IMG/VR virus record: IMGVR_UViG_3300021963_004854
Coordinates: 96,001 to 160,000 of that record
Length of the DNA: 64,000 bases
Origin: a virus
Direction: 5' to 3' (one strand)
Below, one piece after another: positions 32,293 to 35,801 of the stretch. The position numbers were made by a program, and so were the translations under genes. Under the pieces are notes generated by a model. That model was not told the origin of the DNA, made no database searches, and was given only the letters and a program-made list of their open reading frames with translations. Position 1 is the first letter of the stretch. Each line of letters begins with the position of its first letter.

Positions 32293-32368
32293 GGACGATT
32301 AGCTCAGTCGGTAGAGCGCGGGACTCTTAATCCTTAGGTCGTAGGTTCGAATCCTACATCGTCTACCA
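32293..32368 (+). tRNA. tRNA-Lys(CTT)
   Basis: Loop CTCTTAA, CCA. Confidence 0.93.
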
Positions 32369-34750: not shown

Positions 34751-34861
34751 AACACCGCCGCCCGTATGGTGTATAACAATCCCGGGCCTAGTTTCTCGTA
34801 AATATTTTTCAAAAAAGTATTTACAAACACCACACAGTGGTGTATAAGTAGAGAATAAGAA

Positions 34862-35708
34862 ATGGCGGTATAGCGTCATTAGGGTAACCTTCGGCAACGA
34901 AGGCCAAAGCAGGGACTCCTACGTACCTGCGCCGGTAACGGTCCATCTATACAAGCCCAGGTAAGGGTTGTCTCGGCCATGGCCGTAAGCAATCCCCGTC
35001 AGTAGAATGGCGGTAGGCAGTAAGTGAGTGATATAAGTCCGAAAGGATATGAACAGAGCCAGTCGGTGAGTTCTAATAGACTGTGGTGGTCTAGCTGTAT
35101 CGAACCAAACTCGCGAATGCTGAAAAACTAATGGGTAATCGCTGAGTCTGATCTAGCAAGAAAAGGCAAAGCGGTAGCACAATAGTTGAACCGATGAGGG
35201 GAGACTAGAAGTGCGGTTGATTAGTCCGCAAGACGAAAGACATGAGGAGTGTTGTATTTTGTATCTAACAAGATACGAAGCAACTGGAGCAGCACTTCTT
35301 GGTAGGTTCGCAAATTGCTTAATGGTAAAGCAACTGACTCTTAATCAGTAGATTCTAGGTTCAAATCCTAGTTTGTAACAAAAAGCGAAAGTCTGCTCCA
35401 GTGCTATGTGAAAGGTGCTTAATACCTAACACGGAAGTGAATTGGGTTCACGGATTCCCGCAAGGATGAAGTGATTGATCCGAGTGAAGACGTAGCGGTT
35501 TAGCGACTGCGAACAGCTTGCAAGGCTGGCGGAAGAACGAAGGTCGAATAGCATAGCATGATAAGTGATAAGCCACACTTCAAAAAAGGCAGCACTGAGG
35601 AATACTAGATGACCAGCGATGGCTCTAGTGGATAACGAGTTAACACTTCTCGCAAGGAAGTCGGTACGGCTCAAAGGTCCTCAACTAAAAGCAGTAATCT
35701 CATGCTTT
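34862..35708 (+). ncRNA. GOLLD-like giant structured RNA (~850 nt)
   Basis: No credible ORF, own promoter (TTTACA..TATAAG, 34820-34848), many GCAA/GAAA-capped hairpins, embedded tRNA domain, terminal AAAGCA-GTAATCTCA-TGCTTT hairpin, within a phage tRNA cluster; boundaries approximate. Confidence 0.7.
35308..35379 (+). tRNA. CCA-less tRNA-Lys(CTT)-like domain inside the giant RNA
   Basis: D arm GCTT-AATGGTA-AAGC, ACTGA-CTCTTAA-TCAGT, CTAGG-TTCAAAT-CCTAG, weak acceptor, no CCA. Confidence 0.75.
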
Positions 35709-35714
35709 ACAAAG

Positions 35715-35801
35715 ACTTATTAGATGAACACATCAAACCCACTGGGCGGCAGGTCGACTTAATGCTGCGATAGCGGTCCCTGGTGTGTTCTTCTAATAAG
35801 T
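35715..35801 (+). ncRNA. unidentified rod-shaped RNA
   Basis: ACTTATTAGA-T-GAACACATCA pairs with TGGTGTGTTC-T-TCTAATAAGT. Confidence 0.55.

Follow-up and report, generated by a model that had tools for sequence, protein, structure and literature searches.

A tRNA-like module in the central variable linker of a phage GOLLD RNA

A GOLLD RNA with an embedded tRNA-like module in a phage tRNA array

We analyzed a 64,000-nucleotide (nt) stretch of viral DNA (hereafter the window; positions 96,001 to 160,000 of IMG/VR record IMGVR_UViG_3300021963_004854), which belongs to a complete 171.6-kb virus record with one GOLLD and in which a cloverleaf resembling a transfer RNA (tRNA) lies inside that non-coding RNA. 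We found that this element is the tRNA-like module of the GOLLD central variable linker (J13/15) and not an independent tRNA-Lys gene. The Rfam GOLLD model (RF02032), which represents only the 3′ half of the RNA and leaves the 5′ domain uncovered, matched positions 35244–35706 over model positions 1–416 (187.3 bits versus a cut-off of 150, E = 3.6e-51). ARAGORN detected 25 tRNAs in the window, namely 24 free-standing genes around GOLLD, which gives the RNA the phage location and tRNA-array neighbourhood of its family, and an embedded 72-nt tRNA-Lys(ctt) at 35308–35379. The latter scored 62.3 bits with the Rfam tRNA model (cut-off 29), within the score range of the window's real tRNAs. In the GOLLD alignment it falls within the variable linker, a long single-stranded stretch bounded on one side by the first hairpin and on the other by the long-range helix with which the 3′ domain begins, and the GOLLD transcript of ~850 nt is predicted to include the tRNA. 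The features of the locus are given below, where L numbers denote loci of the homolog survey described in the next section and the 54 homologs are those of its alignment.

34820..34848, + strand: probable σ70-type promoter of the GOLLD gene (TTTACA, 17 nt, TATAAG, with an A-rich tract before it), read from the sequence
34855..35243, + strand: GOLLD 5′ domain, the variable half of the family, start approximate (~95–100% identity to L126 from ~34854)
35244..35300, + strand: long hairpin at the start of the Rfam GOLLD model (outer helix 35244–50/35294–300, middle helix 35251–55/35280–84, inner helix 35258–66/35271–79)
35283..35292, + strand: 5′ arm of the "stalk", inside a 9-nt internal loop of the opening hairpin; complement of 35393–35402
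35301..35307, + strand: 5′ flank of the linker, GGUAGGU (GTAGGT block mostly at least 90% conserved in the 54 homologs)
35308..35379, + strand: tRNA-like module (pseudo-tRNA), a cloverleaf with loop CUCUUAA and discriminator C, weak at the acceptor top and lacking CCA
35380..35392, + strand: A-rich 3′ flank of the linker, AAAAAGCGAAAGU (AAAA.GC.AAAG block kept in the alignment; aligns to conserved Rfam positions AAAGCAAAAGUCU)
35393..35402, + strand: 3′ arm of the "stalk", exact complement of 35283–35292
35403..35706, + strand: conserved GOLLD 3′ domain, within the RF02032 match

A previous reading of this locus from the letters alone (the sequence-only reading) had described a tRNA-Lys(CUU) with intact D, anticodon (CTCTTAA) and T arms, a weak acceptor stem and no CCA, set inside the giant RNA. 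This anatomy was borne out by ARAGORN, by the Rfam score and by direct reading. The module has a D stem GCUU/AAGC, an anticodon stem ACUGA/UCAGU with loop CUCUUAA, and a T stem CUAGG/CCUAG with loop UUCAAAU. Its acceptor stem (UCGCAAA/UUUGUAA) consists of U1-A71, a C2×A70 mismatch (canonical 2-71, hereafter C2×A71), a G3-U wobble (G3-U70) and four further pairs, each A-U or C-G. After the discriminator C comes AAAAAG, with no encoded CCA at the module, compared to a CCA in 24/24 of the free-standing tRNAs of the window, a difference that had also been pointed out. The module is the only one of the 25 tRNAs that is shorter at its 3′ end than its neighbours, and its G+C content is 35% versus 51–65% for the free-standing genes. 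The window also contains, as previously stated, a standard tRNA-Lys(CTT) gene (32293–32368); both this gene and the window's tRNA-Lys(TTT) carry A73, where the module has C73. In Escherichia coli A73 is a lysine identity element, a rule that may differ in the host here.

Compared to a functional tRNA, the module therefore retains the cloverleaf with its D, anticodon and T arms and lacks the seven-pair acceptor stem, the 3′ CCA and an anticodon conserved among orthologs. No CCA-adding enzyme, Thg1-like or RtcB domain was found in the phage's 171.6-kb genome, and neither was a T4 Rnl1 domain, in a search that had no positive control. Judging from its sequence, the module is almost certainly non-chargeable. 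Because the full 7-bp (base-pair) acceptor stem, the CCA and the expected discriminator are not maintained, it most likely stays covalently attached to GOLLD; what the module has lost is required by RNase P and by the synthetases.

Homologous modules keep the tRNA body and lose the acceptor end

A first, looser search pattern retrieved 22 GOLLD loci from IMG/VR (19 of them new) among at least 119 matches listed, and was replaced by a stricter pattern derived from the conserved hairpin and blind to linker content, which yielded 82 loci. Together with three cultured phages and the window these made 86 examined stretches, of which 79 matched a profile of the 3′ domain (78 at E ≤ 1e-5). Among their 67 distinct linkers, 54 held a module in normal order, 2 a circularly permuted one and 11 only a short hairpin or a degenerate stretch. 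Since ARAGORN misses several modules (L004, L014, L046), we parsed them from alignment anchors instead. The alignment thus comprised 54 distinct homologous modules, and the 517 free-standing tRNAs of the same loci served as the comparison set.

Pairing within the modules was high in the D stem (96.3%), the anticodon stem (96.2%, with compensatory changes at 5/5 pairs), the T stem (94.1%) and the lower acceptor stem (93.1%); none of 500 shuffles reached these scores, and almost every pair of the module helices showed compensatory changes. The elbow loops were near-invariant, with GG in the D loop and UUCRA in the T loop. By contrast, acceptor pairs 1, 2 and 3, counted by anchors that are independent of the gappy part of the alignment, were mismatched in 50%, 52% and 43% of the modules, as compared to 6–10% in the free-standing tRNAs. 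For acceptor pairs 4–7 the figure was 7–9% of the modules, and for any position of the free-standing tRNAs it was 4–10%. A CCA followed the discriminator in 4/54 modules versus 466/517 free-standing tRNAs. The weak acceptor stem and missing CCA of the window's module are the rule of its clade, while Lys(CUU) is one state among many.

The anticodon arm combined a constant architecture with variable content. All but five modules had a fully paired anticodon stem, and the loop measured 7 nt in 48/54 (with U33 in 44/48 and A37 in 40/48) and 6 or 8 nt in the remaining six. We counted 16 anticodon triplets among the 54 modules, including AUG, AUC and the stop-reading CUA and UCA, and "Ser" and "Leu" anticodons occurred on bodies with a short variable arm. 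Positions 34–36 had an entropy of 1.35–1.71 bits, which is the level of the module's most variable unpaired positions.

These results bear on the idea, raised by the sequence-only reading and present in the literature as "inhibited storage" (PMC12990946), that the module is a caged reservoir of usable tRNA, which RNase P and a 3′ nuclease would excise and host CCA addition would complete, providing extra tRNA-Lys(CUU) late in infection. A cloverleaf that scores like the window's real tRNAs is what such a reservoir would need, and a minority of homologs (L184, L149, L031, L096, L193 and L197) do carry a CCA and a nearly full acceptor stem. We nevertheless consider this idea very unlikely. Across the clade, 50/54 modules have no CCA, and the top three acceptor pairs are near random; the window's own module has C2×A71, G3-U70, a discriminator C and no CCA amid neighbours that all encode it; the anticodon changes even between scaffolds that diverge by 1.5%; the phage already encodes a standard tRNA-Lys(CTT); no CCA-adding or 5′-repair (Thg1-like) enzyme was found in its genome; and no excised product of the Mycobacterium aubagnense GOLLD pseudo-tRNA appeared on a Northern blot (PMC6582537).

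The modules that bear a CCA also had longer spacers on both sides. The unusual anticodon AUG was found in two of them, L031 and L184, and in the CCA-less L050.

Two distinct linkers (L140:7606–7720 and L112:4758–4870; also L179) contained a circularly permuted module, in which the T arm, the acceptor 3′ strand and A-CCA are followed by a loop of 9–12 nt, the acceptor 5′ strand, the D arm and the anticodon arm (GAU in L140). In L140 and L112 the acceptor stem is a perfect 7-bp helix and the CCA lies within the closing loop, which is the topology of a two-piece transfer-messenger RNA (tmRNA) gene. This arrangement is what would be expected if the tRNA shape served as a processing signal that recruits RNase P or RNase Z and nicks GOLLD between its domains, leaving a two-piece RNA held together by the pseudoknot described below. 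The modules in canonical order, including that of the window, have lost exactly the acceptor top and the CCA that define cleavage, and we regard a processing role for them as highly improbable.

A 28–47-nt linker with only a short hairpin, and with the stalk helix kept, was found in L111, L131, L153, L167 and L180, which lie on contigs of 350–465 kb, and in L134 and L146. The five jumbo-phage cases among these (L111, L131, L153, L167 and L180) grouped as a single clade on the scaffold tree.

Three cultured phages, DSS3_MAL1, Caulobacter phage BL57 and Sinorhizobium phage Phosso, had a tRNA at the same place in the linker. GenBank labels the linker module as tRNA-Arg in MN602268 and as tRNA-Gly in PQ287320, and GOLLD is unannotated in both records; annotation of such modules as ordinary tRNA genes inflates the tRNA counts of phages. 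A permuted tmRNA gene of the two-piece type adjoins GOLLD in L002 (MN602268.1, Bacteriophage DSS3_MAL1; 1539–2476) and in L003 (PQ287320.1, Caulobacter phage BL57; 641–959 and 1537–2023).

The presumed stalk is a core pseudoknot helix of GOLLD

The sequence-only reading had further proposed that the module is displayed on a 10-bp stalk. The two strands do pair: ACTGGAGCAG (35283–35292) is the exact reverse complement of CTGCTCCAGT (35393–35402), and the minimum-energy fold of 35283–35402 is a cloverleaf closed by the 10-bp helix (z = −3.7). The eight non-competing pairs of this helix were 97.5% paired in the 54 sequences, with compensatory changes at 4/8 (for example, A-U in 29 sequences and G-C in 23); the first two positions, 35283–84, compete with the middle helix 35251–55/35280–84 of the opening hairpin. 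However, the pairing is not a hairpin stem. The stretch that follows the 5′ arm (35293–35300) holds the 3′ strand of another covarying helix, the outer helix of the opening hairpin, in which 35294–35300 pairs with 35244–35250 (95.5% paired, compensatory changes at 3/7 pairs; the middle and inner helices together were 95.1% paired), and the tRNA starts only beyond this strand and the conserved GGUAGGU. Because the strands follow one another in the order outer-5′, stalk-5′, outer-3′, tRNA, stalk-3′, the structure is an H-type pseudoknot whose third loop contains the tRNA. The helix also occurred, with compensatory changes, in the tRNA-less linkers of L111, L131, L134, L153, L167 and L180, and the Rfam consensus of the whole GOLLD family can form it. 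The complementarity and the closure of the cloverleaf thus stood up to the comparison, whereas the role of a tRNA display device did not, the helix being part of the GOLLD core.

Covariation also supported the helices of the family. In the 54-sequence alignment 93.7% of the cells were paired and 32 pairs showed compensatory changes, and 0/500 shuffles matched the whole-structure score; for the outer helix and the stalk, slid controls were far below as well. A covariation scan that is independent of the named structure recovered 12 helices of the GOLLD 3′ domain, such as 35401–09/35551–59. The helix names used here are provisional.

Modules and anticodon arms turn over between near-identical scaffolds

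To compare the modules with the RNA that carries them, we defined the scaffold as the first hairpin plus the 3′ domain, with the linker removed. On the scaffold tree the nearest relatives of the window carry UAG (L126 and L110) or UCU (L025), so that the Lys(CUU) identity assigned by the sequence-only reading is not conserved; the anticodon changed even at 1.5% scaffold divergence. Beyond the anticodon, near-identical scaffolds carried modules that differed by 35–41%:

Window versus L126: scaffold differences 6/389, module differences 27/76
L139 versus L142: scaffold differences 1/388, module differences 29/70
L039 versus L154: scaffold differences 5/388, module differences 26/74

Between L139 and L142, the spacer that follows GOLLD was also 90–98% identical. 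Because the differences are bounded by the edges of the module and this spacer is near-identical, mutation in place cannot account for them, and the module has been replaced.

The window's module was only 64% identical to the phage's own tRNA-Lys(CTT) at 32293, a level not above that with the array's other tRNAs, and 82% identical to the "Leu(UAG)" module of L110; it therefore did not arise by recent duplication of the Lys gene. Its best match in a set of 628 free-standing phage tRNAs was the tRNA(CAU) of L098 (86% over 57 nt, positions 10–66), whose acceptor stem is wholly different.

A BLAST comparison of the 54 modules with the 628 free-standing tRNAs of the same, partial loci did not show recent capture or gene conversion from a neighbouring tRNA, giving mostly generic D- or T-arm matches of 16–21 nt. 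Longer matches were few (the window, L127 and L166).

The decay of the acceptor stem raises the question of whether the module is simply a relic or a spacer, that is, a tRNA gene once captured or flanked by GOLLD within a tRNA array, whose stable fold now fills the pseudoknot loop with no partner. Acceptor decay and anticodon drift are as expected of a relic, the body of the window's module closely resembles a real tRNA of another phage (the L098 match), and the module is lost or reduced to a hairpin in 11/67 distinct linkers and absent from the solved env-38 RNA. A relic, on the other hand, would not be expected to keep four helices at 93–96% pairing with compensatory changes in nearly every pair, to retain its elbow loops, U33 and A37, or to be swapped as a whole for other intact modules in near-identical scaffolds. 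We therefore think it unlikely that the module is a relic.

The anticodon arm turned over on a finer scale still. Scanning metagenomes for scaffolds of the window's own type added 14 further loci, and with these the anticodon stem ACAUU/AAUGU was seen to carry three unrelated loops. L025 and L188 differed at 5/7 loop positions and at 0/58 of the positions spanning the acceptor 5′ strand to the T arm. Conversely, the loop CUCUUAA occurred on two different stems and UUUAGR-type loops on four. Of the 7-nt loops, 23/44 were letter-identical to the loops of real Lys(CUU/UUU), Asn(GUU) or Arg(UCU) tRNAs of the same phage loci, compared to a mean of 12.6 and a maximum of 21 in 200 trials of a control that placed random anticodons in the same loop context. 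In the window's module, the loop plus its closing pairs (GACUCUUAAUC) is the same as in the phage's own tRNA-Lys(CUU).

This pattern is relevant to the suggestion, made by the sequence-only reading, that the module is an anticodon-nuclease decoy (a special case of the tRNA mimic discussed below), in which 12–14 tethered loops per cage would soak up or misdirect host tRNA-cleaving defence enzymes, with the arm switching along with host defences. The excess of authentic Lys, Asn and Arg(UCU) loops, the identity of the window's loop with that of the phage's own tRNA-Lys(CUU), the shuffling of loops across stems and the constancy of the rest of the module between L025 and L188 are all in its favour, and an unchargeable body would be acceptable in a decoy. 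However, roughly half of the loops correspond to no loop of a real tRNA, and six are 6 or 8 nt long. Moreover, the authentic loops are mostly one base apart (CU-N-UUAA), and common descent therefore explains much of the excess. Relaxed constraint predicts the variability of the loop equally well and, since the GOLLD flanks are mosaic (either unrelated or near-identical) and provide no neutral yardstick, it is confounded with selection for switching. PrrC-type enzymes prefer the modified wobble bases of the UUU isoacceptor, which also speaks against a decoy. The phage genome yielded no tRNA-repair genes that would indicate such an arms race (the Rnl1 search having had no positive control), and the linker lies in the cage interior (PMC12286853), where access would be limited for large nucleases. 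Taken together, we hold a decoy function to be improbable. Little probability likewise attaches to the fuller version in which the linker module would be a cassette in rapid exchange, with diversifying selection acting on its anticodon arm, and would present 12–14 copies of a chosen loop per cage as bait. If that version were true, the cage would be bait for host tRNA-targeting nucleases or another anticodon-reading factor, and the displayed loop (CUU, UAG, UCU, GUU or UUU) would be switched as hosts change.

Other features of the GOLLD locus

The hexamers of the probable promoter at 34820..34848 are both kept in the relatives L126, L110 and L025, where the spacer varies; the promoter did not appear in the list from a consensus scan because its −10 box ends in G. 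The ~390 nt from ~34855 to 35243, which lie outside the Rfam model, contain no open reading frame and are shared with the same three relatives. Upstream of ~34816, the window and L126 are unrelated in sequence. In a comparison of 34816–35731 of the window with L126, L025, L188 and L193, islands of 92–100% identity corresponded to the GOLLD gene and to the tRNA genes beside it, separated by spacers and farther flanks that are unrelated (~25–45% identity after alignment). These RNA genes seem to move, or to be kept, as units in mosaic phage genomes.

Within the 3′ domain, 35414–35419 and 35591–35596 (GGUGCU with AGCACU) form a covarying long-range pairing of 6 bp, with 17 extra pair types in 49 sequences, which crosses other helices of the domain and is a pseudoknot that is not in the Rfam structure line. 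Two adjoining hairpins at 35495–35528 have loops that are near-invariant in ~50 relatives, one being UUAGCG (35500–35505) and the other a self-complementary loop of the UUGCAA / YCGCAAG type (35519–35523); these probably correspond to the kissing loops L20 and L21 of the literature. In six relatives GCAA replaces the first loop, and their linkers show no visible matching change. To find the partner of the published L20–J13/15 kissing loop, we screened the linker against the 3′ domain for antiparallel runs that covary and inspected the UUAGCG loop (hairpin 35495–35510), and saw no consistent partner in the linker or the module.

Discussion

GOLLD RNAs with a tRNA or pseudo-tRNA in the J13/15 linker have been described (Kretsch et al. 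2025, PMC12286853; review, PMC12990946; PMC6582537), and these papers cite Weinberg et al. 2009 on GOLLD. Cryo-electron microscopy of other members revealed an RNA-only cage of 10 to 14 subunits (PMC12286853, PMC12990946), and it was suggested that such cages might enclose or expose the linked tRNAs (PMC12286853). The window's RNA shares with this family the full match to the model, the location in a phage tRNA array and an insert at the same linker position, and its module looks as non-functional as the mycobacterial GOLLD pseudo-tRNA. There is no categorical difference from the published GOLLDs: embedded tRNAs, an inward-facing linker and the idea of caged or "inhibited" storage are already in print, and the window adds no new kind of element. 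What the present comparison adds to these papers is detail, namely an effective acceptor stem of ~4 bp, the 16 anticodons, and the turnover of modules and arms.

Three other RNA systems resemble the window's module in part. Bacterial Y RNA (YrlA, RF02553) carries a tRNA-shaped, non-decoding module within a larger non-coding RNA and is often associated with phages or tRNA arrays. The window's RNA has such a module in common with YrlA, but in normal rather than permuted order and in a cage-forming RNA. Rfam matches to Y RNA were absent from the window, even at E ≤ 1 around the element, and no Ro60/TROVE domain was found in the phage genome. tmRNA is likewise a tRNA mimic inside a larger RNA, and its two-piece gene has the topology of the permuted L140 and L112 modules; it keeps, however, a perfect acceptor stem, the CCA and an alanine identity and is charged, whereas the window's module has none of these properties. 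Finally, phages encode tRNAs that counter tRNA-targeting defences, such as the T5 tRNA-Lys that acts against PARIS, and variants whose anticodon loops evade nucleases. These resemble the window's module in being phage-encoded, in their tRNA-array context and in their Lys-type anticodon loop. They are, however, free and chargeable and replace cleaved host tRNAs, whereas the module is tethered and looks unchargeable.

We consider it reasonably probable that the module is a multivalent tRNA mimic, tethered to GOLLD, which engages a factor of some kind that recognises tRNA. What is kept is the L-shaped body of a tRNA: the D and T arms with the loops that form the elbow, an anticodon stem of 5 bp, and a loop that in most cases measures 7 nt and has U33 and A37. 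As the sequence-only reading had anticipated, this is a tRNA-shaped domain built into GOLLD that lacks what a working tRNA requires and that would occur once per protomer of a multimeric cage. It is predicted to hang in the long loop of the pseudoknot that joins the two halves of GOLLD, and the published structures of other members suggest that this linker loop faces the interior of the 12- to 14-mer cage. Its partner would be a factor that reads the anticodon loop together with the tRNA shape. Between near-identical GOLLD genes the module is exchanged or changed quickly, most of all in its anticodon arm. The retention of shape and loop, the loss of the acceptor end and the swapping of modules speak for recognition of the body or the loop while the module is attached, and against a mere stock of spare tRNA.

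Several observations weigh against a tethered mimic. The module is dispensable for the family: 11/67 distinct linkers contain just a short hairpin or degenerate sequence in its place, and in the solved env-38 RNA the linker is a disordered stretch of 42 nt (PMC12286853). The inward orientation is modelled on structures of members without a tRNA, and would carry over to the window only by analogy. A CCA and 5–7 paired acceptor positions were present in L184, L149, L031 and L096 (4/54, from IMG/VR) and in the metagenomic L193 and L197; some GOLLD linkers may thus hold releasable tRNAs, although the window's module is not of that kind and could be a decayed relative of them without a role.

GOLLD ranks among the largest non-coding RNAs of bacteria or phages whose structure has been solved, and it has no known function. 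Few clues to the role of the cage exist, the tethered tRNA-like module being one of them, and the pattern described here points to selection on the tRNA shape and the architecture of the anticodon loop, not on the acceptor end or a particular anticodon. The quantified conservation, together with the turnover of modules and anticodon arms, may merit a dedicated comparative study, and the occurrence of the same arrangement in DSS3_MAL1, Caulobacter phage BL57 and Sinorhizobium phage Phosso makes the question testable.

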